A stretch of 64,000 bases of DNA from Macrostomum lignano (Eukaryota). Position 1 is the stretch's first letter, and each line of letters opens with the position of its first letter. Below, piece after piece: positions 7,933 to 64,000 of the stretch. The position numbers were made by a program, and so were the translations under genes. A model generated the notes under the pieces. It was not told the DNA's origin. It did not search any database and saw only the letters and a program-made list of their open reading frames with translations. The DNA lies in contig NIVC01000313.1 in assembly GCA_002269645.1 (NCBI GenBank), positions 5,492 through 69,491 of the forward strand. Direction: 5' to 3'.

Positions 7933-13631
<5,699 letters not shown>

Positions 13632-36728: not shown

Positions 36729-36801
36729 CTAACCCTAACCCTAGCCTAACCCTAACCCTAACCCTAGCCTAACCCTAACCCTAACCCTAACCTAACCCTA
36801 A
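36729..36801. repeat. Interstitial telomere-like (CCCTAA)n
   Basis: About 12 CCCTAA/CCTAA/CCTAG units. Confidence 0.88.
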
Positions 36802-40360: not shown

Positions 40361-41100
40361 TGACATCTCAGCAATTCGCCCTCAGGACTTGAAATCTCTG
40401 CAATTCCCTTCCCTAAGATTTTGACATCTCAGAAATTCCCCCAAGCCTTCACATCTCAGCAATTCGCCCTCAAGCCTTGGCATCTCAGTAATTCCCCCCC
40501 CCCCCCAAGCCTTGAAATCTCAGCAATTCCGTCTTACGTCTTGACATCTCGGCAAGTCCCTCTAAGCATTTGACATCTCAGGAATTTCCCCACCAAGCCT
40601 TGGCATCTCAGCAAGTCCCTCTTAAGCCTTGGCATCTCAGCAAGTCCCTCTTTAGCCTTGGCATCTCAGCAAGTCCCTCTTTAGCCTTGGCATCTCAGCA
40701 ATTCCCCCCCCCAAGACTTGACATCTCAGGAATTTCCCCACCAAGCCTTGTTATCTCAGCCTCTTAAGCATTGACATATCAGCAATTCCCTCTTAAGCCT
40801 TGACATCTCAGTAATTTCCTCAGTAACTCTTGACATCTTAGCGATTTCTAACCGTCCAAAGCCTTGACATCTCAGTGATTCCCCCGAAGCCTTGACATCT
40901 CAGTGATTCCCCCGAAGCCTTGACATCTCAGTGATTCCCCCGAAGCCTTGACATCTCAGTGATTCCCCCGAAGCCTTGACATCTCAGCAATTCCCTCCCC
41001 CCTCTAAGACTTGACATCTCAGGAATTCCCTCCCCCCCTCTAAGACTTGACATCTCAGGAATTTCCCCACCAAGCCTTGACATCTCAGTGATTCCCCCAG
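40360..41100. repeat. GCCTTGACATCTCAG(C/T)(A/G)ATTCCCC satellite (23-28 bp units)
   Basis: Purest part is the 28-bp unit GCCTTGACATCTCAGTGATTCCCCCGAA x4 at 40861-40972; related units at ~36600-37340 and ~39530-39915. Confidence 0.9.
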
Positions 41101-43224: not shown

Positions 43225-44810
43225 TGACACGAGCAGGGGCTGAGAGAACACGAAAATAGAGTCACGTGATGACAATCAACTACGTACAAGTACATGGAAG
43301 CTTAGGGGCATGGCCAGTCAGAGCGAAGGGAGAGGAAAGAATGGTGTGCACGTACGATGCACGTACATAGCATAAGTTAGTTAGTTAGTCAGTGCCTAGA
43401 GCTCAGCGCTCCGGCACCACATTCCGTCATCACCAACGAGCTGTCAAGCGATCAAGAGGAACTCCCTTGTTGCCGCGCTCGCTCCTTCTGGGCCGCGGAT
43501 CAGCCGTATCGAGTTCACCGGCTTGGGGACGCTCAACAGTCGCTGACTCTCTCGATCGTTAGACGCGCCTCCGGGACGTCGAGCTCCGGACGGCCTCCGT
43601 CGGCTTCCGGCCCGGCCGCGGCCAGAAGTGGCCAAAGCTGATCCCTGTGCGCCAGGACGGGCCGGTCCGACTCGGTCCGAGTGACGATCGCCGTGTTGTG
43701 CCCGGCCTGCACGACGAACTCGGCAAGTTCTGGCTGTGCGCTTTGGCGAGCTTGGTAAACAACCGGGGCGTCCGTCTCGAAGGTCAGCGTCAACGGGCTT
43801 CTCAGCTGCCGACCGAGGGGCTGCCTCGGCGAGCAGAGCACGAGCAGATTGCACGAGCAGAGCTACATCAGCGCCGAGGGGCTGCCTCGGCCGTCACTAC
43901 GTGGAGTCGCTCGGTAGTTCAGCAGGAGCTTGGACAGGTATGCGTCAAACGGTCCTTGATGAGCTGCAAACGCCTTGAGTCCTCGCTTGACAGTCTGCAC
44001 CATCCGCTCGGCGCAGCCATTGGACTGCGGGTGGTACGGCGTGAAGAGCTGATTGCAGCCGATCCGCTCCAGCCAGCCTTTTTTTTTATTTTTTTATTAG
44101 AGGCAGGGGGGTTGTGTGCACCCTGGCGCACTTTAAGCGACATTGTCACACAACCGGCGAGAGGCATTACTGCCCATTTCGCCGACTCCCCTGAGCAGGC
44201 ATACAAGCGCGCGGATACGTACGCAGGCACACACTCACACAGGAGTGTACAGCGGCCCTAACTTATTTTTATCGTTAGGCATGTACACTTCACTGCGATT
44301 TGGGGGTTGGCTCTCAAGGCCGTTAATTGCACGAGCAGAGCCAAGCCGAGATTCCAATTCAGCCCCAAACTAATGTGACTGCACTTGGAATCGAGCCTGG
44401 GTCGCTGGCACACCAGAGCCTGCGCTAGACCGCTGGGCTACGGCCCCCCTTCCAGCCAGCCTTGAAGCTCCTGATCGTGGAACTCGGGTGCGTTGTCAGA
44501 CACCAGAGTGAGCGGCATGCCTTGCCTCGCGAGGATGGCCCGTAGAACTCGAATCACTGTCCTCGCGCTCTTGTCTGCCACTTGTACGTCTTCCGGCCAG
44601 CCAGAGAAAGCGTCAACCAGCACCAAAATCAGGCCGACTCCCGACACGTGAGCATGGTCCATGTGTACCCGCTTCCAAGGCGTCTCCTCGATAGGCCACG
44701 TGTGCACCGTGCGGTTGGGCAGTGGTCGGATCCTCGTACATGTCGTGCACTGCTTCACATACCGCTCAACATCATCGCAGTGCCCCGGCCACCATGCTTC
44801 GCGACTCACG
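43225..44810 (-). mobile_element. Gypsy remnant (integrase plus probable 3' LTR)
   Basis: WWPGHCDDVERYVKQCTTC...PWKRVHMDHA...LVDAFSGWP...VSDNAPEF, resuming after the SINE as YHPQSNG.AERMVQTVK. LTR-like segment ending ...GTGTCA at 43225. Confidence 0.82.
44081..44450 (-). mobile_element. tRNA-derived SINE, second copy, inserted in the Gypsy integrase
   Basis: Reverse-complement match to 9234-9594; 13-bp TSD TCCAGCCAGCCTT at 44068-44080 and 44451-44463; A-rich tail. Confidence 0.9.
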
Positions 44811-45170
44811 AGCCATAGGCCATAGGCATAAAATAAAGTAAGAAAGTGGTGCTTCGCGTTCCTCCAACTTGGTCATAGACATAAAAAAATGGCAGCGGTC
44901 ATTGATCGAAATGGTAAATTGTATAGTATGCAACTGAGTTGAATAATGGCCAAAACATGAGTGCGCGTAGCATACTGTACAAGGGCATTGTATTTATACT
45001 TTTACCCAGCGCCATGTTATTATTTCGCACTTTTTGAGGTCACTATTCAACACTTTCAGGCTCTGCTGCTATTGGCTGTTTTGCGATTTAGTTTACCATA
45101 CACGAAACACACGAGAGCTATACGAGGTCTGCTATATAATTAGATGGGCCATAGACAAAACAATTTCCTC

Positions 45171-45300: not shown

Positions 45301-46045
45301 ATTTTTTGGGATAAATTTTTTAGAGTCTACTGTAAGTAGTATGTTTTGAAAATTCAACATTCCTATACTCGTACGTAGCTAGCTGGATCGACCATGCCTC
45401 GATTTTTGCTTCTTTCCGCCCCTCTCCTTTTAGTAGAAAAATGTTGATTGATTGTTGATTGGTGATTGTTTCGACACTAGTTACTAAATATATATTACGA
45501 GTACGAGTGTATATTTTATAGTTTATCAATTGTAGATAATACAGAGAAAAGTTTCATCGACATAAGTAATATAGACGATAGTAATAACTAATTTCACAGT
45601 TTATCTTAGTAAAAACTGAATATTGAATAATTAATAAAGTTATTGATCCCATAAAAATCGGCCCACTTAATGTTGATGGCTTTTTTCAGCTCTCTTCTCA
45701 GTTATCTCCTCTCTCCCCTCTTATCTCTTATCTCGATCCTCTCCTCTCCTCTCTTATCTCCTCTCGTCTCTTCTCCCCTGCTCATATATATCTTCTCTCC
45801 TGCTATCTTTTCTCTCATCGCATCTCTAATCTCGCCTCTCACCTATCATCTCTTTCTTCTTCTCTCTCTCCTCTATTCCCGCTCTTTCTCGCTCATCTGG
45901 TCCGCAACAATAATCTAGAATTTTCATCTGGACTTCTAGTTTAAAAAGTTTGCCGACCTCTGATTTAATCAGTGCACATGATATACTAATTTAATCATCG
46001 GATGAGGATGAATCGTCAATGATGGGCCGGAAATGAGTCATTTGG

Positions 46046-48400
46046 CTAGATGATATCGTTTTTCTCTTCTTGGCTGCGGGCGAACGGCGCTGCTGCACCG
46101 GTGTCGTGACGCTGCGGTGTGGCTGGTGCAATTGACAAGCGTTGCTGCTGCTGTGCGGGCTGCTGCTGACATGTGCCGGTGAAATCGGTCACAGTTCGAC
46201 GCCTATGGGCTCTGGGAGTGACGCGATCGTTGGCGTGCTTCAACGTAGCCTTAATGGCCTCCTTCACATCGTGTTTCAGCGTTGAAGGCGGCTTCTCCGG
46301 CGGCACATAAAAGTGTTTAGCGGCGTCTGTTATAAAAAGATGAGTAAGAAATTTCTGAGCGCTTATCACTAGGCATGCCAATGATGCGTTTAGATATAGA
46401 ATATAAAATATTGAATATAGGTATAGTACTGTTGCCTAAATAAAATAGCTGTGTACATTGGACTGGCTGCTTAAAACAAAATTAAAATCGTTTAAAATAC
46501 GCTCATACGGCCTATGTTTGCGCCAAGGTCCTCTCATGACTCCCTTCACTGGCTGACAACGTATTTTTAGCTGTTGTTGTCCCGAGCTAAGTCTTTGAAG
46601 ATAGTTAATACTAGTAAGTTTACTTTTAGTAGCACGTTCCGAAAATTTACTTATGCGAATTTGCATCTCTCATTAATTTTTTAACCGCTCGAAAATTCTT
46701 ACCGAGAAAAAGATCCAGGAAATTTTTACGGAAGCTTAGCTGCTTGTCGGTCAAATCAGTAGGAACTTCGTGCTGCACCTTGGCTGCCATGTTTAGTCCC
46801 AAGAGATTTACACCCGTCTGTATGACCAGTGTCATGGCCGTGTCCAGCATTGCCCGGACGGATGATCGGAGGTCTGTTCCTTGGCAGCAGCGCAGCAACG
46901 CCACCTGTTTCAGATAATTCAAGTAACCGATATTGGTAATCATGCGAGTTTGCGTCAACATTTTATTGATTATTTAATAAACTCACCAGTTCCCGAATAT
47001 TATCCAATGGGGATTTTGCGAAGTGGACGTAGTCCTGCCAACTGGAAGTAGGCCAGAAGCGCCTCGGCTGGTCTGTGGAAGCAGAGTTTTCAACCGATGC
47101 GACAGGCGCTGAGGTCGCGATCGCCGATATGCTAGCAAAAGCAGCACGTAATCCTGCCATGTCTTGCTGAAGAGCAGATAAATGCTTTTCGAGAGTGGCA
47201 CGCGTCCGGTTCCCTTCTCTTAATAAACAGAGCAAGAATGTATGGCCCTCGGGACTTTTTAGGCTGCATTTAACCGCATCTTGTGCTTTCTGTCCCAGCC
47301 GATGGATGACATCGGGACCCCAGTTCAAAAAAGAAAAGTCGTCAATTTCTGCCGCTGCCATTGAAGCTGATGAATCAGCATCAGCACCGGAAGACTGTTG
47401 CTCGAATGCTAGCATCGTTGATTCTGCTGCTGCCGCAGACCCAGCTGGAGACTTTGGAAGGCAGGTCAAGTCGGCGCTGAGAGCTCGATTGACCGCTGAA
47501 CTCGTCGCTGCTGCCGCTGCCGCAGACCCAGCTGGAGACTCGGCAGCTGCAAGCGCCTGCTCGTTGGCCTCGGACCCCGAATGCGTCTCCCCTTCTTGAG
47601 AATCCTCCGAGTCTTGAGCCTGGGGCATGGGGAGAAGTTGAGCCTCTGTCTCCGGCCTTCGAAGCGAAACGACGGGCACCTGTTCGGCTGTCCTAACTTT
47701 GACGGCCCGACCATGCACGAAAGCGTCGCTGGCAGGCAGGCAGCTCAGACATCTCTGACCTCTTTGCCTGTGTAATAAAGAAATTATTTTTATACGTTAC
47801 TGCTACTGCTAGAAATTACGAAAGAAAACAGAGTACAGAGCCCTCTCTACCCCTGAAAACAAATGCATGCAAAGAATGTATAACAACAGCATATTTATTA
47901 AGAAACGAACCTGTGACTGCCATAAACGACGAGCCCCCCTGGCATCGGAAGACTCAAAGACACGCGGTTGTAGCCTCGTCAGGATGTCGGGGATGCTGAA
48001 CTTCTTCCGTAAGAGCTTTCGAACATACAAAATGCTAAGTGCGGTGTCATTTAAACCCGCCCCATCTGGTTCATGTAGGTGGACCTGGACAATTGACAGT
48101 GAAATAGATAAATGCGTTACAGATAGCTATAAATAGGGTTATAAGCAATTTTAAGCGTACCATAGCAAGTGAGAGATTGAAACATTAATAGGCAGACAGA
48201 TAACCAACCTGAACAATTATGGCGTTGTATACAATGCCTTCGTAGCTTGCGTCGCATATCCACGCCTGCTGCGAGAACTTCTTTTCAAGCCACTCATCCC
48301 GTGTCCAGTTTTCCATTTCTTCGGGTAGGAAGACATGGGATCCGTCCACCTAGACGAACTTTCTGTCCTTCTTAAGAATCACGATGAACTTCATCGTTTT
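46046..48400 (-). pseudogene. Multi-exon DUF4806-like gene, often transposon-associated
   Basis: QVALLRCCQGTDLRSSVRAMLDTAMTLVIQTGVNLLG (46647-46961) fits the DUF4806 pattern; preceded by an Ala/Ser-rich low-complexity and coiled-coil ORF (46963-47718). Exon structure not resolved. Confidence 0.45.
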
Positions 48401-48969
48401 TTGCTAATTGACGTCGACGAAACGAACTTCGTTGTCTAAATAAAACATATGCGCCTTATGTAATAAAACTGCTAGATGATGGCAGAGACGGGAGAGGAAA
48501 TCAGCGAGTGAACAAAGCTTCATATCTGAATTCGGGTTTGGGGAGGTAAAAACATGAGGTGGTTCCAGTCCCATTTCATTGGCTCCTAGAAGTAATGTGG
48601 CCCTCCCTTTAGCCAAGAATGAAAATTATGATGAATTTCAAAGAAGTTCAATTCCAAAGAATTCCTTATATCATAAATTTTTATCGTATTCACAGTGACA
48701 CTTCCTGAAATAAATTCTGTGAGAAAATCTCATCAAACAGCAGAAGAAATGGAGACGTATTGAGAGGCTGGCAGACACTCTATTCTGTGCAAATAACCAA
48801 AAAGATAACGAAGTGAAGCACTCCGAAAACATCGAATTCTTTGACGCACTACAGGACCCTGTTGCTGAAGCAACGCCAACGGACTCCGCTAGCTTGGAAA
48901 ATTTACCTGAGGAGCCACTGACAAGCGGCTTGGACTAAGAAGAAGACGTATTCCCAGAGGCCAACACAG

Positions 48970-49320
48970 ATGATCAGCGGAGCGAGGAAGAGAAACTACG
49001 GGACCTTCTCATTGTCTTCTTTATTCTTTACAATATCCCACGTGAAGGCATACACTTTCTCTGTCAACAAGCTTGAAGTACCGGCTCCAAAGTCTGCTCA
49101 CTACATTCAACGTTTTATTGACGATGGAAAATCTGGAGGAAAGGAGAGGAATATTTCGATGGAAAAAATGGATGACGGGTACTTTAAGTACGTTTCCATA
49201 GTCGACAATCTTAAATGGTTATTCTCTTTGATTATGTTTTGCGATTCTCACAAATTAAAACTCTCTCTACAAAGCAACTATGGCTGCGCTTATTAAATGG
49301 AAACATCTTCCCGTGGGCTC
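48970..49320 (+). pseudogene. Possible EnSpm-like transposase N-terminal remnant
   Basis: DGYFKYVSIVDNLKWLF resembles the F.YVPI..TL..L motif of animal EnSpm-like transposases; truncated. Confidence 0.3.
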
Positions 49321-49958
49321 GTTTTATTGAGTGATCTATTCAGCCCTCAGTGCCGGTGCACCCGACATTGCACTTTTCCTCACATGCCCGCCACCTGGCT
49401 TTGTCTGAAGGTTAACAAGTTTACTTAGTTATTAAAGATTAGGAAATTTACGCACACCGCCCAACCCCTTTCTGTGTGATTGTCTGAGCTGCCCGCCTAG
49501 CGTCCCACGTAGCGTCCCACCTTCACTCAGTTGTGACTTGTTCTTTGTGTACGCGCTCGCGCCGGCCAATCGGCGGCCGAGAAAGGTCTGTGGTTCCAAA
49601 CTCTCTAGTAAACTCTCGGCTCCTCTGGCACGCTCCTCTGAGAAGTAAACTGCCTTCGCTTAAATTTCTTGGGCAAACTGCCTACTAGAGCTTTCGAGTT
49701 GTGGGTTCCAGGGACGGAACGGCTCAGTGTTCGATGCGATGTCACGCTCAGATATTACAGTCAGTTCGGGCCAGTGGGCTGCAGCGATCCTTAGCTCGTC
49801 CGCTGAAGGGGATTCTGAGTCACACTAGATCAGGCCTAGTCACAACAGTGGTCGTCCTGGGACTGATGGATCTGATCGCCAGATGGGTCCTTCGTTGATC
49901 GCGTGATGACCCTGCTGAAGTAGAAGGCATGAGGGGGCTTTTGGGACAAAATTTTTCA

Positions 49959-50174
49959 CGTCCTCCATAATCCCATTAAATCCATCCATATTATCCCCGA
50001 CAGAATCAGAAAAAAGGGGGGTCGCACTCGCTCACAAAACGTCCTCCATAATCCCATTAAATCCATCCATATTATCCTTGACAGAATCATGAAAAAGGGG
50101 AGGGGCCGCACTTGCTCCGAAAAATTCGAACATAATCCCATTAAATCCATCCATATTATCCCTGACAGAATCAG
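49959..50174. repeat. 81-84-bp tandem repeat, 3 units
   Basis: CATAATCCCATTAAATCCATCCATATTATCC(C/T)GACAGAATCA at ~49966, 50047 and 50131. Confidence 0.9.
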
Positions 50175-50662
50175 AGCAGGTGTCCACTGATACCTGTTAT
50201 GCTCACTGACACAGACATAATCCACTGACATCCACCCATAGCATCTTCGAAACAATAAGAAAATAATCTGCATTCTTCTTCCCACATTCAATTTGCAACG
50301 CGAAACCAGATCCCTAAAACTTTAAATCAACTTCTTGCTGAAGTTATAAGGCAGTTGCATGTAGTTGCCAACTACAAGGTAGTACCTTGTAGAGTGTAGA
50401 CGTACGTTCTAAAAATAAAACCCATGCCACGCACTCCACATGTGCTTTCCATTTTACTTCCGCTTTGGCAACCATTAATTGTTATTAATTTTTAACCATA
50501 AATTGAAAATACTGCCTAGGTATAAATAAAAATGCCTATGCCTATAAATAGATTTCCGAACCCACACCAATTGTATATATACAGCCGATTCACACCGCCC
50601 CTCGCCTCACCCTGCCTGCTCCACCTCGCCCTTGCTAAACCTTACTCGAATTTTTTAATCTA

Positions 50663-51622
50663 ATGGCTTCCAAGACGCCAAGTAAAATTCTAAATAAAAT
50701 TAAAAACATCAATACAAAGCACACAACCAGCACAGCAATCACCATCTCGGCAATGACTGAGGAAGAACAAGCTGCATTATTGAAAAGCCTTGAAAAGATT
50801 GATGAGCAATCTTCTAAGAAGGAAAGATCCGAGAGGCCAAACGCGTTGATGTCGAGAATGAAAGAAGAGACGTACGGTTCATAGCAAAGTTAAAGGAAAC
50901 GATGAACAACATAAGAAAGGAAGAAATTGTGATCCAGACAAGGTAAGTCTTTTGCTTATTAGTTTACTTGTGAGCGATACTTGCTTATTACTTTTGCTCT
51001 CTACTAGTTTTTTAGTGAAACACATTGACAAAATTTCTCAAAATTCTTGATTGGGTGATTTAAACGTGATCAAACATGATTATAGATAGATTTGACATTA
51101 GATTAGAGATCTATGCAAGCAAACCTTTGATCTAATTCACATTATGATTGCATATTATTTCTTTTTAGATTTAACAACGCCAGGGAGTTGTGCACGGCCG
51201 ATGTGCCAGACGATGAAGAGAGCATGCGCACGCAATACATCAATCTGGACTTCTTTATCGCAGACGTTGAAGTTCTGGGGTGTCTAGCGAAGAAAAAACA
51301 AGCGGAAGTATTTGCAAAGTACAAGAACAAGTTTGGTCTAACAACGGAAGAGACAGCCAGACGCTTGGATACTCCGGTTAAATTTGGTCAGCGGCTTTTC
51401 ACATTTCATGGTTTATTAACCAAATTTCCTAACATCTTGTTCTCCGGCTACAGCATGGAGACATTGCTTACGTTCAAAAAGACCATCGAGAAGGAAGAAT
51501 TCAACGACGAAAACTTCCGATGCAAGCTAGAAACGGAGTTCACAATAATATGGGAAGGTGAAGACGAAGACGAAAGAAGCCTGTTGGAAGAGACAGAGGA
51601 GAAGATGGAGACATTTGTTTAA
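50663..51622 (+). CDS. Spliced ORF of unknown function (exon 1 50663-50942, exon 2 51169-51622); one frameshift in exon 1
   Basis: AG|GTAAGT donor at 50943 and TTTTTAG acceptor at 51168 join in frame (QTR|FNNARELC). Adding one A in the GGAAAG run (~50820) opens exon 1 fully. Confidence 0.6.
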
Positions 51623-51677
51623 GCAGTGAAGAGGAAGAAGGAAGACGATGGACAATATGAAGGTGACTCTGAAAAAA

Positions 51678-51877
51678 TACTATAAGTAACAAATATTTCC
51701 AGAAAATTCTGGACGGTCCAGAATTGAATGTAGTTTAGATTCAAGCCTACTATAAGTAACAAATATTTCCAGAAAATTCTGGACGGTCCAGAATTGAATG
51801 TAGTTTAGATTCAAGCCTACTATAAGTAACAAATTACTTATTTGTAATTTCCAGAAAATTCTGGACGGTCCAGAATT
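51678..51877. repeat. 70-bp palindrome-rich tandem repeat (2 full units plus 1 rearranged)
   Basis: TACTATAAGTAAC at 51678, 51748 and 51818; each unit carries AATTCTGGAC-G-GTCCAGAATT and TCCAGAA-AA-TTCTGGA. Confidence 0.93.
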
Positions 51878-52177
51878 ACATAGGTAATCATACACCTTAG
51901 TAGCTATAGTTATTAACTTATCCATTTTATAACTTTAAAATGCATTGTTAATAAATAGTAATATTAATTTAATATTTCAATAACTAAAAATTCAACTTCA
52001 TGTATTAAATGCAATGTATTGCTTTTAATGATTAAATATAATGAATTTAAACTAATAATAGTTTTCTTAAACACTAATAAATTTCAACTGTCTTTCATTT
52101 TATTTTGTTTTTGTAAAATTAGTGCTATTTTGTAACATTTAATATATCGATGAGTCTTTTTTTAAATCCTTCCCGAC

Positions 52178-52678
52178 TCAAGCGTCTCTCTCTACCCTTA
52201 TATCTTTCAAAAGTCTTCCCAATTCATTGTTAGGAGCGCACAAAATAAACCCCGCTCCTGAGCCTCCGCCCTCTCTCCTCGTGCACCAGCCCTCTCTCCC
52301 TGTGCACCCGCCCTCGCCTTCAACCCCCAACCCCAACTTTGTTTTACCAAAAATAACAGCTTTAACTAGCTTCCGAGCAATCGACTCACGAAATCCGCTT
52401 GAAGCCCCTATATTGTCTAGTCTCCTAAGCATTTCTTTGTCCCAACGATTCTTCTCCTCAGGAAAATCTCTATATTTAACATCGTGCCACATGCAGACAG
52501 AGTCTAGCTCGTTTACAGGCTCATGCCCAGGATTTGGGTTGTTGTTTCCATCCAGCTGTATTTCAAGTGGATTCAAAGGCCCGCAATATTTATAGCCGGG
52601 AAGTGTCCAGCCTTTGTTTGGATGAGGAAGCTTTTCTATCAGTCCATGTGAATCTAACTTACCACCAGAGCGTTGCAT
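52178..52678 (-). CDS. Parvovirus VP1u-type phospholipase A2 protein
   Basis: LPGYKYCGP Ca-binding loop, P.NELD, catalytic HD (CMWHDVKY), C-terminal K.KLGLG; open 166 aa. Confidence 0.88.
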   Translation of the reverse strand: MQRSGGKLDSHGLIEKLPHPNKGWTLPGYKYCGPLNPLEIQLDGNNNPNPGHEPVNELDSVCMWHDVKYRDFPEEKNRWDKEMLRRLDNIGASSGFRESIARKLVKAVIFGKTKLGLGVEGEGGCTGREGWCTRREGGGSGAGFILCAPNNELGRLLKDIRVERDA

Positions 52679-52709
52679 TATTTTATTTTAAATTTTCTTT
52701 TTAAAAAAA

Positions 52710-53693
52710 ATGACAGATCAGAAACTTAAAAAACTCTACTACAGCGACAAAGGAAAAACTGCAGTCACCAAACTCGCAGAACTAAGTAAGGAACCAAAAG
52801 CTAAAGTAGAAAAGTGGCTCTCTAAGCAGGCTCTCTTTCAAGTCTATTTCCCACCAGTAAAATTTACAAGACCTCACTTTAGCATCTATAAACCTAATGA
52901 AGCGCACCAAGCAGATCTTTTGTTTCTCCCCAACGACTCAGGCTACAAGTATGCTCTTACAATTACAGACGTTGCCTCCAGATATAAGGAAGCGAGACCG
53001 CTTAAGACGAAGAAGTCAGAAGCAGTTGCAGCCGCCCTCCAAGATATTTATAAAAACTCTCCGCTCACATACCCCCAAATCTTTATGACCGACCCGGGTA
53101 AAGAATTCTTTGGGGCAGTGAAATCACTTCTACATAAGTATGACGCAAAAATTCGCTATGGCAGAACTAAGCTCCACAGAGACCAGGCTTTTGTGGAAAG
53201 ATTCAATCTAACTCTAGCCAAGAGACTATTCACTAAGCAGACAGCAGAGGAGCTGAAACTAAAAGGTGGCCAATACTATACCGAGAGGACAGACCGGCTC
53301 CCCACTGTTATAGAGCAATTGAACAATGAAGTAACGCGCATGACTGGATTGAAACCGTCCCATGCAATTAAACAAGACACTGTCGAACTTAAGTCATCTC
53401 ATAGAACAGACACCTCAAACTACCCTAAGCTTCCAGGAGTTGAATCACCATACATACTGACAAACTCTGAGTTTCTACGCTTTTTATATCTACCTGGAGA
53501 GCTAGAGAAGGACACTAAAAGAAGAGCTACAGATCCATACTTCAGCCTTGATGTACATAAAATAGACAGACATTTTACCTCCGACTCTGGTGACTATTAC
53601 TTTTTATCTCAGGCCTTTAACCCTAAATCCCCCACGCGGTCATTCACTAGAGCTGAACTCCTAGTGATACCAGCTGACACAGAAATTAATTAA
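52710..53693 (+). CDS. Retroviral-type (rve) DDE integrase of Polinton, intact 327 aa
   Basis: HQADL, TITDVASRY, MTDPGKEF, VERFNLTL: all three DDE residues present and ORF uninterrupted. Confidence 0.95.
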   Translation: MTDQKLKKLYYSDKGKTAVTKLAELSKEPKAKVEKWLSKQALFQVYFPPVKFTRPHFSIYKPNEAHQADLLFLPNDSGYKYALTITDVASRYKEARPLKTKKSEAVAAALQDIYKNSPLTYPQIFMTDPGKEFFGAVKSLLHKYDAKIRYGRTKLHRDQAFVERFNLTLAKRLFTKQTAEELKLKGGQYYTERTDRLPTVIEQLNNEVTRMTGLKPSHAIKQDTVELKSSHRTDTSNYPKLPGVESPYILTNSEFLRFLYLPGELEKDTKRRATDPYFSLDVHKIDRHFTSDSGDYYFLSQAFNPKSPTRSFTRAELLVIPADTEIN

Positions 53694-53709
53694 AATATTA
53701 AAATAAAAA

Positions 53710-54165
53710 ATGACAAAGATTGAAACCAGAACCATCAATAAACTCAATAAAATCATTGAATCAAAGAAACCAGGTCTTATATCAATTAAAGGTATCAAAG
53801 TAAAAATCGATCCCACGCAGCAAATAGTTCAGTGTAATGAACAAAGACACAGCATCACAGATGAAAAGTTAGGAGGAATCCTACCATTAGCAGCTCTTAT
53901 TCCGATCATTGCAGGCGCTGTAAGTGCCGCAGGTGGTGTAGCTTGAGGTGTAGCAACTGCTGTTAAAGCTGGTAATGATAGAGCCCACCAGCTTGAATTG
54001 CAAAAGATTGCAAGAGATAAAGGTATAACAATTAAGGCAGGAGAGGGCTGCCCGGATTTTGATGATCGTGATGATTGTGAGCATGAAAATTCTGTAAGCA
54101 AGTCTGACATTGTCAAAGCCATCATGACACTGCACAATGCTGGGTTTACAATAATGCGCATGTGA
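53710..54165 (+). pseudogene. Adenovirus pX-like hydrophobic protein; in-frame TGA at 53944
   Basis: GGILPLAALIPIIAGAVSAAGG resembles adenovirus pX GGILPLLIPLIAAAIGAVPG; the same frame stays open after the TGA to 54165. Confidence 0.6.
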
Positions 54166-54287
54166 TGATGTTTAAAACCCCACTTTATCCAGCTTCATAA
54201 ACCTAACGCTACTGATAGGATGTAGAAACAGTTCAACTTTTCTATCAGGGTGGTCACCCTCAAAATTTTTTTTATTTTAGAGAAAAA

Positions 54288-57200
54288 ATGCCAAAAGCCA
54301 ATCCAGCAAAATATTTAGTCAACAAATATTTTTCGTTTCATTTACCCTACCCTACAACCTTAAAAGGCGTCTCATTTCAAGACAAAAGTAATTTACTAAG
54401 AGAAGCATGTAAACAAACGTTTAACACCGACCCTGGTCACCTGGGAAGCTATGAAAAACAGTTGGAAATCATCAATCAATTAGAATCCAACCAGTATGCG
54501 CCTATAAAAAATCCTGCAAAGGAACACCAAGAGAGGAGTCGCAACTTAGTTAACAAATACGAAACTCTCACTGGTGAAAAAGCAACGTACCCACAAAATA
54601 AGCAGGAACAAGAGAAATTAGAGCAATTAATCCATTTAAAAGAGTCGGAGCTTGCCACTGAAGAGATTAATTTTGCACAGAGGAAGTTTACAGAACATTA
54701 CATAGAGTACACAATCCCAATAAACGGCACCAACGGTACCACCGCAAATATCTACGACTATAAAGACAGCATCCAATCAGTTGTTGATCACACACTCAAA
54801 ACACGCAAGACCTTTAAACTACAGATATCATTCAAGATTGCGTTTTATATGCCTGCAAAACCCACTGAGCATCTCGAGTATTACATGACAACAAAGGCAA
54901 AGCCATTCACCCCAACAGACACACTGGATCCTTTCCTTCAAGATGTCACTAAGAAAATTGAAGCGTTTACATCCAGAGGTTCCGGATGGGTCGTGGGAGG
55001 GATTCAAAGAGCGACTGTCATGGTCATGAAATATGACCCACTTAAAGCCTCCTCTTATATAGAGCTCCCGCATAAGCTAGCCGGCAAAAAAGCTTGCATA
55101 AATGTTAAAAATAAAGACAATTGCTGTGCTCTATGGGCAGTTCTTTCTGCACTTTTTTATGATAGGGTACCTCACAACCCCGAAAGAACCTCAAATTATC
55201 AAAATTATTTCAATTACTATCTCATCGAATGCGAAAAGAAGGGAATCAGGTTTGACAAAGGAGGCTTGGCGATCTCTCAGATCTCAAAGCTAGAAGAAGT
55301 GTTTAATAACAAAATTAGAATCACAGTCTTTGAGTGGAGTGAAAAAACTGAGAAAGTTCAACCGGTCAGATGTAGCAAAGACGTTTTAGATCCTGAGGGG
55401 AAAAGGCGGACTGAAGTGGATCTTCTAGTGATTGGTAATTTACTAGAGGAGGCTCACTATGTTTGGATCAAAGATCTTTCAAGACTCATTCACAAGCAGT
55501 TGAATAATCATCACGAGGCTGTTGCCATCTGCCGCTTGTGCCTTAAGCATTACAGTGGACCTGAACGCTTTGAAAAACTAGCAGAGCATGAATTATCATG
55601 CGAGGATCACCCAACAAACTGCTCTCTTCCTTCAGCTGAAGAGAAGTATCTCCGGTTTAAGAACTATCACAAGATGGAGAAGCTCCCATTTGTTGTATAT
55701 GCTGATTTCGAATGCTCAATCGTGCCAGAAACTCAAAAACAAACTCAAACTCAAAAACATGTCCCCAATTCAGTAGCATATGCCTTTATTACTACCAAAG
55801 GACTTGTTGAGTATAATTATTTCTTTGGAGAGCAGTGTGTGGAGCAGTTTATTGCCAGAATGTTAGAGTTGCAAAAAGTGATTAGCACCCTTCAAACTGT
55901 TCCAATAATGATGACTGAGGAGGATGAAAGCAATTTCCTATCAGCAACTCATTGCCACATCTGCAGGAACCAGTTAACTCACACTAATATTAAAAACCCG
56001 ACCGTTAGAGACCACTGCCACTTTAGAAATTTAGAAATTTAGAGGTGCAGCGCATAAAACCTGTAATATAAAGCTAAAATCGAACATTCATGATCTAACA
56101 ATATTTTGTCACGACGCAAAGAACTATGACATGCATTTAATAGTTGAAAAAATCGGCATGATTCCAGACATACACCTTGATTGCATCGCAGAGAACAAGG
56201 AGAAGTTTAAGTGTGTTGATATTAAACAGGATAATTCGGGTACAGGTAAAATAAGACTGAAGGATTCATATCAATTTCTAGCTGCCAGTCTAGACGAACT
56301 AAGCAAGAATCTAAAAGATGAACAATGTACATATACAAAGATGTTTGCAAGTAAAATTAACAACACTGATGAATCATTTAAACTTTTAAGAAAGAAAGGC
56401 TTCTACCCCTATGAAAATAATACTGGGTATCACGTATTTGAAGAAGGTTTACCACCACAGGAGAAGTTCTTTTCAAAACTAACAGACTCTGGAATCTCTG
56501 ACAAAGACTATGAGCACGCGAAGCATGTCTATAATTACTTTAATTGTCAAAACTTCTTCCAGTATCACCTGCTTTACCTCTACACAGACGTGTTTCTGCT
56601 GGCCGATGTGTTTGAAACTTTCAGATACACCTGGTACACAGCATACGGCCTCGATCCAGCACATTATGTGTCTCTGCCTGCCACTAGCTGAGAATCTTTG
56701 CTTAAAATGAAATGGGATCAAGATCCAGATTGGTACATTGAACTTCTTACAGATATTGACATGTACAATTTTGTCGAATCGTCAAAGCGAGGAGGGATCT
56801 CAATTTGCACCCATAGATATGCAAAAGCAAACAATCCCTACATTGGATCTTACAATAAGGAGCAGCCCTCAAACTACATTACTTACTTAGACGCTAATAA
56901 TCTCTACGGGTGGGCGATGAGTCAAGATCTTCCAGTTAGAGATTTTCGATGGCTACCCTCATCAGAATTCAAACGGGACTTTTCATTGGCTGCCATTTAT
57001 GAGGTTGATGTTTACATTCCACCAAAGCTTCACGACTATTTCTCTGACTTTCCACCCTTCCCAGAGAACATCAAGTGCCCGAAAATAATCGAAACTCCCA
57101 ATGATAATAATGGAACTTGGCACCTGTCAGGAACAGAAAAAGAACATACAGAGAAACTAACACAGAATCTAAACAACAAGACACGTTACAAAATCCATTA

Positions 57201-58164
57201 CAAACTGCTTCAGTATTTTATCTCACTTGGTTGCAGGGTCACCAAAGTTCACAGGGCTCTTACATTTACAGAGGAAGCGTGGATGAAACCCTACATTGAT
57301 AAGAATACCCAGTTTAGGACCAAAGCAACCAACGACTTTGACAAGAACTTCTTTAAGTTAGCCAACAACTCTGTCTATGGCAAGACCCTTGAGAATGAGC
57401 GGAAAAGAACAAACCTGAAACTTGTTACCTCATCAGAGCCTGCTGTTATTCAGGCAAATATGTCAAAGCCAACATTCAAAGAACTCCACATCTTTAATAG
57501 CTACCTAGGTGTGATCATATTTTATAAAACCAAGGTGACGCTGCGCAAGCCGATCTATACAGGTGTCACTGTTCTCGACGAATCAAAACGTCTGATGTAC
57601 CACTTCTTCTATGGCATGAAGCAGCAGTACAAGGATAAAATGAAACTCTTGTACACTGACACAGACAGTTTTATTATGGACATTCAAACAGAAGACATTT
57701 ATCAGGACATGCTGCAGCAAAAAGATTTGTTTGACTTGTCTGAGTATGATGAATCTTTCAGGACACAGAATGGCGATCAAGTGTTTGACGCCACTAACAA
57801 GAAAGTGATTGGGAAAATGAAGGACGAGATTGCTGGCGACATAATAACTGAATTCATTGGGTTGAGAGCAAAGTCATATTTTGTAAAATGTGAGTCGTCA
57901 GACCCAATTAAAAAATCAAAGGGAATTCCGAAACGTGTGGTTAGGAAGGAACTTAATGAAGCTGAATACAGAGACGCCTTGAATTGCAACAAAAAGACAT
58001 CACATGATTTCTCAAAGCTACAATCTAAAAACCATATAATTCACACAATTCAGCAAAAGAAGATTGGACTCTCAGGTGCAGATAACAAGAGATTCATTTT
58101 TGATGACAATATCAACAGTCTACCGTTCGGGCATTGGAGATTAGGTTTAGGAGGTGGAGGTTAG
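54288..58164 (+). pseudogene. Protein-primed family B DNA polymerase (pPolB); frameshift at ~56030, nonsense codon at 56689
   Basis: GSGW..YIELP..KKACINVKNKDNCC; ExoI VVYADFEC; CHIC...RDHCH..FRGAAH..CN insert; HDAKNYD; ExoIII YTDVFLL; RGGIS; YLDANNLYG; KLANNSVYGK; YTDTDSF. Confidence 0.95.
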
Positions 58165-58250
58165 GTTCGGGCACTGGATATTAGGAGATTAGGAGGTGGA
58201 GATTAGGTTCGGGCACTGGAGGTTAGGTTCGGGCATTGGAGGTTAGGTTT
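58126..58250. repeat. G-rich degenerate repeats derived from the polB 3' end
   Basis: TTCGGGCA(T/C)TGGA x4 interleaved with GGAGGTTAGG/GGAGATTAGG. Confidence 0.8.
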
Positions 58251-58285
58251 AGTTTTAAGAGAAAGTTTAATAAACCTCATAAAAA

Positions 58286-58687
58286 ATGACAACAAATAAC
58301 TTTCTTGAAGATTTGGCTAACGAACTGGAAATCCCAAACTTTAAAGGAATATTTATGAGGGACACTCTGCCTGATTTTCCTCTAAGAAAAGAATGCGGCA
58401 TCATGAACTTTGACACCGCCGATAAGCCATGATCTCATTGGGTTTGCTGGGTGATTGATCCCGATCGCAAGCACAAGTGTTATTACTTCGATAGCTATGG
58501 GACGGCAGTACCAGAAAAGCTAAGAAATTATATGAAGGGAAAAAATAATAAAAAAATTTACCGCTCAGACTTTATTCTTCAAGGTCTTAGCAGTGATATT
58601 TGCGGTGAGCTGTGCATGACTGTTTTGTATGCAATGACCAAAACACGAAAGACCTACAAGGAAATTATTCTTGGCTGTGTTTCATAG
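58286..58687 (+). pseudogene. Adenain-like cysteine protease; in-frame TGA at 58430
   Basis: FKGIFMRD.LP...ECGIMNFD..KP*SHWV...YYFDSYG...Q....ICGELC: His, Asp, Gln and Cys in order; the stop lies at the usual G of G(S/T)HW. Confidence 0.9.
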
Positions 58688-58691
58688 GGGT

Positions 58692-59419
58692 TCATTGTGC
58701 ATTTCTCGTCGTCCTTCTTGCCGACTTTCTTGCCGACTTTCTTTCCACATAATGTTGAAGAACTTTCTCGAGTTCATTTTTCAGCTGACTCATGTCATCA
58801 GTACCGACCATGTTCAAGTTCATTCGAATTGATTGTTCATAAAGATCCTGAATGGTTTTAAACTCATCCTCTGAAATGAACTTATCCTCGATTGCCCTTG
58901 AAATGTACCCTATGATTGATGTGTGCACCCCTTTCTCTTTTACTTGCTTCTCCTGTAGCTGCTTTAGTTTTTTCGCCTGTTTCGCGCTACTGCTCCAGTA
59001 ATTGCTGAAATAAGTCCACATGCAGCACCTACTGAACCAAGTGGGATTGCGATTGGGGCTGTGATGACTGGCAACGTTGAGACAGCTGCAGCAGATCCAG
59101 ATAGAACAGACACAGATCCTAGAATCATATTGCTGTAGTCGAAAAATTTTCAGTGGCTGTCATAGCGCTTAATTTTCTTTGTGTTGTGGAAAATATTTTT
59201 TTCAAGATCATCTCGCATTTTTTGAATCTCCACCAGTCGAAACTGTTGAGAGTTCCAAGTAATGACGGGGTAGAGTTTTTGTTGCTCATATTGAGGTGCA
59301 TTCAGATTCGGTGCATTCAGGCTTTGTGTGTTCGAATTCGGTGCCATTGGGTTTGGTGCTGTCGGTATTTTAGGTTCAACGTATTGAGACTGATCGTATA
59401 GAGAATTTTGTTGGGCCAT
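58692..59419 (-). pseudogene. Membrane protein of Polinton-like architecture, frameshifted
   Basis: FRLVEIQKMRDDLEK...KRY, then hydrophobic ILGSVSVLSGSAAAVSTLPVITAPIAIPLGSVGAACGLISAITGAVA (in another frame), then ISRAIEDKFISEDEF. Confidence 0.6.
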
Positions 59420-59505
59420 TTTTTTCCCTAGAAAAAAAAATTATAAAACTATCCGGTTGAAAGATCTGTTTTCTTTTTGATAATTCCATCTGCACCGCCG
59501 GTTGT

Positions 59506-60315
59506 CTAGGCGGCTCTCGTGACGCCGGAGGATCGCGAGTCCAGCAGGCAGCGGCTGGGCGGCTGACGTTTGAGAGCGTGCCGGATTACTCCGGCGGGGT
59601 CCAGAGCTCCTTCTACTCGATCTGTAGACATGACCGGACGAGCAGCAGATTCTGCTTCATCAATAGCAATATCACGAAGATTGAGTGTTCTCTCCAGACG
59701 ATTAAGCCTCCTTAGTATTTTACCCCAAGAGCTATACATTCCGTTTAGATAGCTACTGTGTGATACATCGTTTCTCTTTAATGCTTCAAGTCTTTCTTTA
59801 ATTCTATCATGCAACGATGTTGACTGGTTCATGAACTCTTCTAAATTATTGACTTTAACTGTGTTGGTTGCGACGTTTTCTTTAATTCTATCATGCAACG
59901 CTGTTGACTGGTTCATGAACTCTTCTAAATTATTTACTTTAGCTGTGTTTGTGAAAACTCCTCCTTCAAGAATACGCATCCGTCTATCAATGGAATTTCC
60001 CAGAAGATTAACTGATGATCTCAAGCCGTTGATTAGCGAGACTATCGAAGTTATTTCTGACCTTAGTTCATTAGTTGCGTTTAACAACGGCACATAAAGC
60101 TTATCACTTTCAAACTTCTGCCTAGCTACTTTAAGCCTGAGATCTTCCATGTTGATTTGCAACTGGTGCATGGAGCGCTCTAGGGCTTTCAGTCTGTTTT
60201 TATTCAGTTTGATCTCTGGGATCTCTTCATCAGTGTTAATGTAGCGCTTGTCAAGGAAGGAAGTTGTGAGAGTGCTGTTGCCTGTAGTTGACTCACCTGC
60301 AAAATTAATAGACAT
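59506..60315 (-). CDS. Coiled-coil protein (269 aa) with an internal 28-aa duplication
   Basis: Open ORF with heptad character; 84-bp direct repeat starting at 59795 and 59879 (VNNLEEFMNQST.LHDRIKE x2). Confidence 0.7.
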   Translation of the reverse strand: MSINFAGESTTGNSTLTTSFLDKRYINTDEEIPEIKLNKNRLKALERSMHQLQINMEDLRLKVARQKFESDKLYVPLLNATNELRSEITSIVSLINGLRSSVNLLGNSIDRRMRILEGGVFTNTAKVNNLEEFMNQSTALHDRIKENVATNTVKVNNLEEFMNQSTSLHDRIKERLEALKRNDVSHSSYLNGMYSSWGKILRRLNRLERTLNLRDIAIDEAESAARPVMSTDRVEGALDPAGVIRHALKRQPPSRCLLDSRSSGVTRAA

Positions 60316-60331
60316 TTTTTTAAATAAAAAA

Positions 60332-61131
60332 TTAAAGTAAAATTCTTCTCTCCTTATTAATCAGGACAAACTGATAGGGTTGGTTCCACTTTTCATGGCA
60401 TATGTTAACAAATTCCTCCTGTGATATTGTTCTGTTAGAGTTCTTAGCTGGATATGTAATGTGAGCTGGGGCAATGACCTCATTATAAAATCGTTTCAGT
60501 CGATCCTGTGGTATGGTTGGGAAAAGGAGAATCAAATTACAGTTACCTCTAATTGTTTTATTTGGCAGTTCAAACCAGTTTTGGGCAATGTAAATAACAT
60601 TGCAATTATTATGTCTACCCGGGTGAAATAATTTTCTATCTGTTTCTGGGGACCGGTCATGCAGTCATCGAAGACAATCAGGTGCTTTCTCCCTTTTCTA
60701 GTTCATCAAGTTGAGGTAAGAGTTTAGTTTTAGGATCTATCTGTGGATCTCCATAAGTGAAAACTTTAATGCTTTTGCCATTTTTCATTGTCTGGGATGT
60801 GCTTTGCGTATTCAGTGGCTACAACTTCCGGGTTGCTGTTGAGGTCTTTTTGATGTCTAAAACATTGAATAATATCTTCCTTGTTGAGTTTGTTCTGTAG
60901 GCCCGCTACTAGCATTTTATACTCATCTTGATACAGAGTGGGTGAATAGATATGTAGTGTGTCATAATCGAGGAATCCAGGTCTGAGGAGCATGTTAAAA
61001 ACTCTGAAGGTTTTCCCTGACCCAGATGAGCCAACAACAATGCATCGGAAGTGCCCTGGAATTATCTCGTTGTGAGCAAATTTTATCTGATTGCGTGTCC
61101 AGTGGGGATGAAAGTCGTTTGTGAAGTCCAT
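60332..61131 (-). pseudogene. A32/FtsK-like genome-packaging ATPase, three frameshifts
   Basis: Walker A GSSGSGKT; Walker B HLIVFDD; FTR(G)RH and VIYIAQ recovered by single-base corrections in homopolymer runs. Confidence 0.9.
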
Positions 61132-61329
61132 TTTTTATGTAAAAAAACTTTTTCTTTTTAAACTTGTGTATTTAAAACGCGTGTGTCTTTTTTCGGGATG
61201 TGTATGTGTGTGTCTTTTTTCGGGTTGTGTGTGTCTCTTTGCGGGATGTGTGTGTCTCTTTTTTTTACTAGTCCTACATCCGACTAGTCCTACACCCTCA
61301 CACCTCTTTTACCGTCAGGGTGCACCAAA

Positions 61330-61710
61330 TTAGTCAAATTTAAAACCGCCTCCTTTCTTATATTCAGCTCTCATCTTTGCGTAGATGGCTGGATCGACAC
61401 TATCTGCACTCGGTGCAAGGGGTTGAATATCTGGTATTGATTTCCGGGTTTCATTAACCGTATCCTTTATCTTTTTGGCTGCTGTGGCTACACTGCCAGC
61501 CGCTTCGGCAACGTTCTTGATGTTCTCTTTGTTCTCTCCAATGACCTTAAAAATCTTGGCCCCTTGAGCGATCAAATCAGCAAGGCCATTCCCAGAGCGT
61601 TCTTTTCTTGGATAGTGGCCTGCAGGGAAAAGTCCAGATCCGCGTTTAATGAGATTAAGTTCCTCTTTGTCGTAGTATTTGTCAATGTCTTTTTCGAAAA
61701 TAATTGGCAT
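61330..61710 (-). CDS. Small putative virion core/cement protein (126 aa from ATG at 61710)
   Basis: Repeated basic-G-x-G motifs (KRGSG, RSGNG, KKGGG) and an amphipathic LADLIAQGAKIFKVIG segment. Confidence 0.55.
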   Translation of the reverse strand: MPIIFEKDIDKYYDKEELNLIKRGSGLFPAGHYPRKERSGNGLADLIAQGAKIFKVIGENKENIKNVAEAAGSVATAAKKIKDTVNETRKSIPDIQPLAPSADSVDPAIYAKMRAEYKKGGGFKFD

Positions 61711-61976
61711 CTTTTTAAATAGAAATTTATTTTTTGTTAAACCGTGAAAGCAAAAGTTCTCTTGCTCTTTTATCGATATATTTTCTCTCAAGCATTTTGT
61801 CCAGGATGTTGACAAATTCTTTTCTATTCTCGTCTTTCATTCCGGTCTTTGCCGCTCCTAGAAGAACAGCTAACCGCTTGTAGAATTCAGGCATGCCTTT
61901 TCCGGAAGAGCTTGGAGGTGATTCGAATGATTGGTCAGAGGAGGAACTGTCATGTGGCGCTTGTCTTTGTTAAGGT

Positions 61977-62965
61977 GTGAATACTCTGTCATTGATTCGC
62001 TTCATTCGTTCTGGGGAGAGCCGCTCTAATTGTCGCCAAGTATCAGGGTTTGTATCTTTGTACTGGGAAATCTCATTTGGCCCTGCTTTTTCAAGCGCTT
62101 CTAGTACTTGTTCGGGTGTGATTTGTTGCTGTGGCGGTGGAGGTTGTTGTGGTTGTGTTTGTGTTTGTGGTTGCTGCTGTTGTGGTTGCTGTGGTTGTTG
62201 TTGTTGTTGACTGCGGACCGAGCTCGGAATAACCGGACCAGGTGCTGTTGCTGGTTGTTGTGGCTGTGGTTGTTGTGTTGTGTTGTCTTAAGACCTCTTC
62301 TTGATCCGGCAAACCAAACCATTGTTTAAAGTATTTGTATTTTCTAAACCTGTTCAAGTCAATCCTGTTTTCATGTAAAATTTCAAAACACCGTCGTTCT
62401 TGAGCATATCTATATCCCTCTCTAAAGCGAAGGTAACAAGATCTTTGTAATTTTCGAACTGCTTTTTAGACGTTTTCTCTAGATTTTTAGTCATGTAGTC
62501 GAGTAAACTTTGAGTGAATGGGATTCGTTTAGTTTCTGCGCCTTTATTGATTAAAATATTTCCTTTTTCACTTCAATGTTGTAATCCGCCGTTCCCCGGT
62601 AATATTTTTTCGCCAGGCGCTAATTCCAAAAAATATATTTTCCATCATCCAATACGGGGCCAAAAAAGTTATCCGTCACTTTCATCTGCACTGGTTGTCC
62701 TGGTTGCTGAGCCTGTGGTTGTCCCGGTGAAGATGGGATTTTACCCAATGTGTTTTGCAAGTGGCTCTCTTGAATATCATCAACTGCTTCCTTCACAGTG
62801 TCGAGGTTTTTCTTCGCTTCTGTGTATCCGGGTTTGTGAAATTCGTGGCTGCTTGGACAAAATCATTGTAGGATTGTTGCTCCTTATTACTAGCCGGTAA
62901 CTCGTTTCTCTGCTTAGTGCTAGCTTCTCCAATTCAGATATCTGCTGTGTACTTTTTCGCTTCAT
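61977..62965 (-). pseudogene. Decayed Polinton-type ORF with a Gln/Pro-rich C-terminal tract
   Basis: ATG at 62965; fragments TDNFFGPVLDDGKYIF and IPFTQSLLDYMTKN..ENYKDLV; then QQPQPQQP...QQQQPQQPQQQQ...PPPPQQQ and a unique tail to TAA at ~61977. Multiple frameshifts. Confidence 0.5.
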
Positions 62966-62995
62966 TTCTTATTTATATTTTTTTTTAGTTGAAAA

Positions 62996-64000
62996 ATGAA
63001 CGACCCACTGACACCAGTTTTCTACAAAATAAACAAGCCTATTTTGAGTGATGATAGCACAATCAAAGCGATTCAGGTAAGAGTTCCAGTCAGGAAAATC
63101 AGAATGAAACTAATCTTGGTCCTGGCCAAACACTGACATTCACATACAATGGATGTTCGTCTTGGTTAGTGTGCACAGTCTTAAGAGCGGCTTCCATATG
63201 ACATTTCAATTCAAGACAAAGGGTGGTGCGGATGCGGCTCGTGCTAAACGTTGACAAGCATGATGCGGATGTGGCTCTGATTAGTAACTTTTAGGCGTAC
63301 ATGTTCAAGAGTTTAGTGTATCGAATGGAGCACAGAGCAATATCATCCATGTCTATGACGCTCATTGTTGATCGAGAATCCTGATTTTATTTCAGTTGGG
63401 AAGTGTGCGGTTTATTGCAGACGAAAAGAAGGAGATATCAATGACAGTGGTTAAAAATAGGAAGAAGAGATACGACTATGCATTGCAAGGTGCAGATGAT
63501 GCTGCTAAGAACCGCGCAGTATCGGTCTGTTGATGTATTTGTGCCACTTAGATTTATGAGTGGATTCTGTAATACATTTAATCGACTGACTAGTAACTTT
63601 AGCTACACATTTAGACTGACTAGAGATGATCGCAGTAGAGTGTTGTGGACTGGGCGACCACACTGGATGGCTGTGAAGCTAACCGGAATCGAGCTGTATT
63701 TGGAAGTCATTGAGCCAAAGACTGCACTAAAAGCGGATTATCTTAAGGCAATAGAGAAGGACATTGATGTTGCATACACCCCTACATGTGTCGAGATGAG
63801 CGAAACGAAACTAGAACAAACATCTGCATCAAAGAGGGATCATGCAGCAATCCAAGGTATATCATTATTAATATGAGAAACCCAAATAGCATTATACGCT
63901 ACATGCATGGAGACGTTCGGTCCATTCAGCATGAAATCAGTGATAATCTTTACCTGCGCACTGCCACAAAATGGAGATTTCAGTCAGAACAAGATTAGCA
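62996..64000 (+). pseudogene. Major capsid protein (double jelly-roll, Polinton PY/hexon-like), decayed and truncated by the window end
   Basis: DDSTIKA; VALISNF*AYMFKSLVY; VFVPLRFMSGFCNTF..L......FRLTRDD; VKLTGIELYL; PRYIII: colinear with the Polinton capsid motif order as I recall it, across frameshifts. Confidence 0.7.

Follow-up and report, generated by a model that had tools for sequence, protein, structure and literature searches.

Mosaic and palindromic copies of a Polinton/adintovirus family in the genome of Macrostomum lignano

The last 64 kb of contig NIVC01000313.1 of the Macrostomum lignano assembly GCA_002269645.1 (positions 5,492 to 69,491 of the forward strand; these 64,000 nucleotides are referred to as the window) end in a stretch of tightly packed genes, which an initial annotation took for a virus-like insertion. 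What is this element, and is it a lone relic or one member of a family? The window contains the left 14 kb of one integrated Polinton/adintovirus copy of ∼15–16 kb, and about 240 copies of the element are present in the genome. These copies are recombinant mosaics, the variants that they share are under purifying selection, and a few of them are palindromes that are likely integrated copy-back replication products. The terminal inverted repeat (TIR), the ∼240-copy family, the mosaic structure and the palindromic copies had all been missed initially.

Judged from its sequence, the element is near certainly an endogenous Polinton/adintovirus, Eupolintoviridae-like and with a probably Alpha-type polymerase. 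Pfam profiles were searched against 24 frames of the window, with the gathering thresholds as cut-off. The rve integrase (E-value 7e-11), PLA2 (phospholipase A2, 2e-13), Adeno_PX (9e-6) and DNA_pol_B_2 (1e-7) profiles matched above gathering in the window itself. Pox_A32 (4e-4) and Peptidase_C5 (0.024) stayed under gathering on the broken window pieces, whereas sister copies with open frames passed it (ATPase PF04665, 3.8e-6; protease PF00770, 8.3e-5); the capsid of an open sister copy matched DJR-like_dom PF21738 (9e-9). For the catalytic piece of the protein-primed DNA polymerase B (pPolB), 3,897 of the 8,000 scored candidates matched, the best with an E-value of 3e-126. The capsid model, with a predicted local distance difference test (pLDDT) score of 60, gave Foldseek matches to the Sputnik, PBCV-1 and adintovirus capsids (E-values 1e-11 to 6e-14), and a YCGP loop and an HD motif are visible in the PLA2 translation. 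The N-terminal part of pPolB aligns to the Corynactis adintovirus PolB (29% over 449 aa); from its Cys/His motifs we take this region to be putatively of OTU type. Thus the class, the gene identities and the endogenous state proposed by the initial annotation were borne out, with the ATPase and the double-jelly-roll capsid recognized through the open sister copies. The set of protein-primed PolB, rve integrase, double-jelly-roll capsid, ATPase and adenain-like protease is that of Polintons/Mavericks (Polintoviricetes).

Alignment to sister-copy ends places the left boundary of the element at 49,919, where the TIR begins, and not at 50,360 as first proposed. The claim of a full virion gene set was overstated for the window: the contig stops at 64,000 within the capsid gene, and the minor-capsid candidate is not in the window (zero coverage, with matches in 27 of 29 copies). 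In sister copies this candidate is a 285-aa open reading frame (ORF) directly after the capsid gene, assigned by position and linkage only. The rightward extension once suggested for locating the minor capsid gene, the second TIR and the target-site duplication (TSD) is blocked, as the contig ends at the window edge. The GC content of the densely coding element stretch is 0.36–0.43, AT-richer than the 43–50 kb region.

The copy number was obtained from exact 20-mer matches genome-wide, which amounted to 348 for the termini, 235 for pPolB and 241 for the capsid, with 0 for the reversed controls. Thirty-five copies were fetched, comprising 29 facing end-pairs from the 100 of 348 termini listed, together with five loci and a second stretch from an integrase search; C633 is a further fetched locus beyond the 35. 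All statistics on 29 copies exclude seven short or palindromic loci. A perfect 6-bp TSD flanks 23 of the 35 fetched copies, and C633 as well, so that the Polinton combination of TIR and TSD is found in these sister copies, while the right end of the window copy is missing. Uninterrupted copies are about 14–16.5 kb in size and longer ones contain other transposons. The gene order is TIR, left-end slot gene, PLA2, integrase, pX, pPolB, protease, membrane protein, coiled-coil ORF, ATPase, two unknown ORFs, capsid, minor-capsid candidate, small ORF and TIR. The two TIRs of a copy diverge by 0–12.4% (n = 23); because element ends recombine, this divergence was not turned into ages. The element stretch is present in 20 of 24 sequencing-run rows (7 studies, one organism label). 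No RNA run occurs among the sequencing runs listed as containing it, and two presumed-RNA runs, in which coverage is even and a putative intron is crossed without a joint, as DNA would, are uninformative on expression.

Several structural variants were observed among the copies. The TIRs are about 250 to 830 bp long, and their long form contains a 78–80 aa ORF (C2068:133681-134393 and other copies), which some copies carry at both ends, without a slot gene. Non-autonomous copies of 3.6–3.8 kb with both TIRs and only capsid-side DNA lie at C105:570682-574517 and C544:473028-476600, the latter with a perfect TSD. Three copies form a nested cluster at C1098:18129-48745, and a partial copy is duplicated in tandem over 10.5 kb with 99.7% identity at C1604:1576-26704, possibly by the assembly.

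Variants common to at least three copies (348 nonsynonymous, 857 synonymous) have a ratio of nonsynonymous to synonymous change (dN/dS) of 0.11, compared to 0.36 for private variants. For shared variants the ratio is 0.06 in the capsid, 0.05 in the ATPase and 0.08 in the integrase. Divergence between copies is very uneven along the element. The median pairwise value for pPolB is 1.6–2.4%, and the maximum reaches 26.9% in the 409-aa ORF, the most divergent gene, 21.6% in the capsid, 21.3% in the ATPase and 14.7% in PLA2; the capsids fall into two classes with 84% protein identity. Diversity is 0.013–0.029 over pPolB and 0.08–0.15 on the right side of the element, and the trough is also seen at synonymous sites, with 26 shared ones in 479 pPolB codons and 160 in 431 capsid codons. 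Such low diversity is consistent with one polymerase block having spread recently.

Distances between copies are poorly correlated from gene to gene for distant genes (rho 0.04–0.23) and well correlated between the capsid and its neighbour (0.78). For sites less than 50 nt apart, four-gamete incompatibility is 0.16, and it increases to 0.87–0.89 beyond 2 kb (1,342 sites, 29 copies). Within the 20 TSD-perfect copies, it is 0.84–0.95 between the left block, the ATPase and the capsid, with 0.95 for the ATPase–capsid pair, whereas the capsid and its neighbour, the minor-capsid candidate, give 0.03. Taken together, these observations indicate that the copies are recombinant mosaics in which capsid, ATPase and PLA2/integrase alleles, with differences of up to 12–27%, reassort freely.

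The left-end slot exchanges unrelated genes between copies. In 32 copies, the DNA between TIR and PLA2 forms five multi-copy clusters plus five singletons, in some cases without a gene. The slot protein of the window copy is ∼30% identical to single-frame ORFs of 271–273 aa in other copies, and the window-type gene, with a putative intron in the window copy, is a single frame in two others. Its structure model (pLDDT 74) matched helix-turn-helix (HTH) folds with Z up to 7.7, a common arrangement. Sequence search found no outside homolog of it, and no viral fold matched at E ≤ 0.001; the Atlas matches were weak. One family for all slot genes found no support: the profiles of two groups did not detect each other above reversed controls. 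Binding of the slot protein to the TIR repeats is a guess.

Among the matches listed (100 per marker), four close inverted pairs were found, C957 and C975 by pPolB, C276 and C633 by the capsid. Three of them, C975, C276 and C633, are clean palindromes of 11–13 kb, each duplicating one half-genome and each with a perfect TSD, unrelated flanks and an unequal centre. In C975 the left half is duplicated (11.5 kb in total, arms of 5.45 kb with 99.2% identity, centre of 492 nt); in C276 and C633 it is the right half, with arms of 4.75 and 4.85 kb that are 99.6% and 99.3% identical. In C975 and in C276, each arm has its nearest match in its partner arm, ahead of all other fetched copies (best of these 96.4% and 98.4%). 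Most simply, the palindromes are read as the outcome of template switching in protein-primed strand displacement, after which the integrase would have inserted the two-ended half-genome. Strand-switch joints in short-read contigs, at 55,753/55,793 (two studies) and 59,495/59,615 (one study), hint at more fold-backs; 15 of 30 joints were shown, with short sides. Three other loci did not qualify as clean palindromes: C957 lacks a TSD and its arms (94%) enclose a foreign centre, the ends of C827 are mispaired, and C1098 is nested. A literature search, which most subscription journals and Repbase lay outside, gave no report of palindromic integrated Polintons.

How much of the damage in the window copy is genuine? 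PLA2, the integrase, the coiled-coil ORF and the 127-aa ORF are open. The integrase, first described as intact, is indeed open in frame, but according to the indel map it is 12 nt and 42 nt shorter, both in frame, than in most copies. One premature stop is present in each of pX, pPolB, the protease and the membrane protein. pPolB and the membrane protein also have one frameshift each, the ATPase has three, and the capsid has 15 within the last 1 kb at the contig end. The breaks in pPolB are a frameshift near 56,020–56,040 and an in-frame stop at 56689–56691. Because 20 of 27 copies have no frameshifting indel in the same capsid stretch, the 15 indels are read as likely mostly contig-end error. 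Across copies, pPolB has 130 deletions and 14 insertions, 125 of these 144 being of 1 nt, with 0–14 frameshifts per copy. No pPolB break is common to all; the commonest site, found in 12 of 24 copies, lies within a 5-nt run. The other genes are open in 15–28 of 29 near-full copies, gene by gene (pX in 19, the 409-aa ORF in 20). Many breaks look like assembly error rather than decay. The stops and frameshifts noted initially in replication and virion genes are thus present in the assembly, but their reading as decay was overstated.

What process produced this family? We consider it probable that the ∼240 copies belong to a recombinant family that likely replicates as free linear DNA by protein priming, likely forms double-jelly-roll virions, and re-inserts by its integrase. 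In such a cycle, free linear element DNA would replicate by protein-primed strand displacement, with pPolB priming itself at the TIRs; by analogy with known families, the ATPase would package the DNA, the protease would mature the capsid, pX would condense the core, and PLA2 would help membrane crossing at entry. The integrase would then re-insert the element into the host genome. Co-replicating genomes would recombine, and therefore one recently successful polymerase could have spread over older capsid, ATPase and slot alleles. A polymerase switching back onto its own product would yield a half-genome in which both ends are good, and the integrase would insert it like a normal genome; copies of this kind would depend on a helper. 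End-copying on a smaller scale likely explains the variable TIR length and why some copies have lost the slot gene. The narrower proposal, an adintovirus population in mid-sweep with one polymerase, two co-adapted capsid types, a swappable HTH regulator slot and ∼3–4% copy-back insertions, has in our view an even chance of being right.

The dN/dS of 0.05–0.09 for shared variants of the capsid, the minor-capsid candidate and the ATPase would not be maintained by a virion-free element, and the capsid stays linked to its neighbour while the ATPase and capsid do not stay linked to each other. Both observations speak against a self-synthesising transposon that spreads only within the genome, does not need virions, and acquired its mosaics and palindromes by gene conversion or repair after integration. 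We regard that account as unlikely, although ∼240 similar copies are ample substrate for it, RNA or particle evidence is absent, and a TSD would survive in-place repair. Still less probable is that the family is real but that long-read assembly of a 15-kb repeat created its mosaics, its uniform polymerase and its palindromes: reassortment remains in copies with a perfect TSD across both flanks, and the palindromes differ from adapter fold-back reads in that their two flanks are not alike, a TSD is present and the centre is unequal. Short-read contigs from four runs are also far deeper on the window pPolB than on the window ATPase or slot allele at 93% likeness, a weak comparison of summed depth. 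In favour of artefact, the frameshifts, mostly 1-nt deletions and varying from copy to copy, indicate uneven assembly quality, and similar 'pseudogenes' in virophage copies vanished on resequencing (PMC8547959).

Several points weigh against replication as free, packaged DNA. Neither virions nor free DNA nor transcripts of the element have been observed. The search of the assembly for intact copies urged by the initial annotation did recover the family, with open frames for the other genes, but none of the 35 fetched copies nor the window has an unbroken pPolB frame; the longest is 921 aa, against ∼1,280 aa in relatives. Long-read assembly could mix the reads of different copies at the element centre and lower pPolB diversity artificially, gene conversion between integrated copies can likewise produce mosaics, and TIR-primed repair could form a palindrome in place and retain the TSD. 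The short-read strand-switch joints differ from the C975 junction, the sole assembled palindrome junction placed on the window. As for the virion, the capsid model is of modest quality (pLDDT 60, template-modelling score about 0.5), and the minor-capsid candidate has neither a Pfam profile or PDB sequence match nor structure support.

At the sequence level the lineage is new and its gene set known, although the slides and Table S1 of PMC8502044 may list closer relatives. No near-identical catalogued element was found: the best pPolB match is 48% identical, and Corynactis, at 41%, is the only named adintovirus among the best 120 of the 3,897 matches. Named homologs from corals, a mussel and a dragonfly suggest an animal host. 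A scan with the capsid alignment found no IMG/VR relative; in a JGI metagenome scan, 247 of 598 pattern matches were relatives, the 80 of these that were retained being only 20–26% identical. The 14 capsid sequence matches include no named adintovirus capsid, and the sequences retrieved contained no named reference hexon, those of the Mayetiola class included. In the capsid tree, which contains unnamed proteins only, the element's capsid groups with 10 such proteins (41–78% identical) in a supported clade. A Beta-type pPolB, considered at first, was dropped, as Corynactis falls in the Alpha panel of Fig. S2 (PMC8502044). Like the Alpha adintoviruses, for example that of the coral Corynactis, the element combines a PF03175-class pPolB (putatively of OTU type), rve integrase, adenain, FtsK/A32 ATPase, double-jelly-roll capsid, PLA2, pX and terminal repeats. 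Alpha adintoviruses are already known to carry PLA2 and pX (PMC8502044), so PLA2 by itself is not novel. Alpha adintoviruses are defined with PLA2X, in which PLA2 is fused to a pX-like domain (PMC8502044, Starrett et al. 2021); in the window, by contrast, PLA2 and pX are encoded separately, on opposite strands and with the integrase between them, and the HTH slot gene has no outside homologs. Eupolintoviridae (formerly Adintoviridae) is the family name used in PMC12451622, and a terminal protein-vOTU-polymerase layout is described in PMC11161782.

Vertebrate Mavericks have 6-bp TSDs, TIRs, a size of ∼17 kb and purifying selection on capsid genes, and some vertebrate genomes hold over 100 mostly defective copies (PMC8097293, Barreat and Katzourakis 2021). 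The M. lignano family resembles them in all these respects, with a similar size and many copies. Their architecture is conserved and intronless, whereas the M. lignano family has a swappable slot gene that in some alleles contains a putative intron, capsids of two types and copies that are palindromic. Reassortment of replication and capsid modules is reported for polintons and virophages (Jeong et al. 10.1101/2023.08.22.554363; Barth et al. 10.64898/2026.10.13.758929; Hackl et al. PMC8547959), mostly between distant lineages, whereas the recombination described here is among close copies in one genome. The excerpts of 10.1101/2023.10.06.561300 and PMC9863843 hold nothing decisive for this comparison. 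Truncated endogenous virophages regained TIRs (PMC8547959). Unlike them, the short M. lignano copies are mirror duplications of one half. In copy-back or snap-back defective genomes, and in adenovirus panhandle replication, one end and its neighbouring genes are duplicated in inverse orientation around an unequal centre. The M. lignano palindromes share the inverted end duplication, but are chromosome-fixed DNA with a TSD.

The features of the window copy are collected in Table 1. The Atlas neighbours of the membrane protein (0.94) are unnamed mollusc and virus clusters, a weak match.

Table 1. Features of the Polinton/adintovirus copy in the window (window coordinates)
Feature	Position	Strand	Basis and remarks
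Left TIR	49919..50330		Begins AGTAG; aligns to both ends of other copies
84-bp repeat, x2.6, within left TIR	49958-50175		Repeat search
Variable left-slot gene	50663..51622	+	Coiled coil and predicted HTH; first part frameshifted in window copy
Putative GT-AG intron of left-slot gene	50943-51168	+	
Parvovirus-type phospholipase A2, open, not fused to pX	52178..52678	-	PF08398 E 1.9e-13; no Adeno_PX match
Retrovirus-like DDE integrase, open	52710..53693	+	PF00665 E 7.4e-11
Adenovirus protein X-like core protein (pX)	53710..54165	+	PF05829 E 8.9e-6; premature stop 53944-53946 (codon 79)
Protein-primed DNA polymerase B, OTU-like N-terminal region	54288..58164	+	PF03175 E 1e-7
Adenain-like maturation protease	58286..58687	+	PF00770 E 0.024 on piece; premature stop 58430-58432
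Membrane protein, hydrophobic core	58692..59419	-	Translation; stop 59150-59152, frameshift near 58,956
Coiled-coil-like ORF, open, internal 84-bp duplication	59506..60315	-	Only sub-threshold Pfam matches
A32/FtsK-type packaging ATPase	60332..61131	-	Walker A motif, PF04665 E 4e-4; frameshifts near 60,612, 60,684, 60,768
Conserved small ORF, ∼127 aa, open	61330..61710	-	Open in 24/29 copies; no Pfam family
Conserved ∼409-aa ORF, Q/P-rich middle, fragmented in window	61727..62965	-	No Pfam family
Double-jelly-roll major capsid gene, 5′ part only	62996..64000	+	PF21738 on open copy, fold matches

To the left of the element, the window contains other repeats. Several broken ORFs without a Pfam family lie on both strands at 46,000–49,300 and are probably an unclassified DNA transposon. 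Integrase fragments of Gypsy-type long terminal repeat (LTR) retroelements are found at 43,800–44,900 and 9,200–9,600 (rve, E-value 1e-10; Integrase_H2C2), and an LTR-like stretch near 9.2–9.6 kb recurs in inverse orientation. At 36,380–41,100, degenerate telomere-like CTAACC/ACCCTA repeats are followed by ∼4 kb of 15–31 bp C-rich satellites, a subtelomere-like block. A 50-bp tandem array at 6,370–7,570 has inverted copies about 1 kb off, like the end of a miniature inverted-repeat transposable element or a foldback element.

On its own the window copy is unremarkable, and the interest of the element comes from its family. Virions of most animal Polintons are unseen, as PMC8097293 states for Mavericks, and the replication route of animal Polintons has so far been inferred. 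The present family, young and high in copy number, has capsid genes under selection, recombination that can be measured and palindromic insertions, and so offers tests that are direct and cheap. If the mid-sweep reading with its copy-back insertions is right, these copies would provide the first fossil evidence for replication of animal Polintons as free linear DNA through strand displacement, and also the first that they yield defective-interfering particles.

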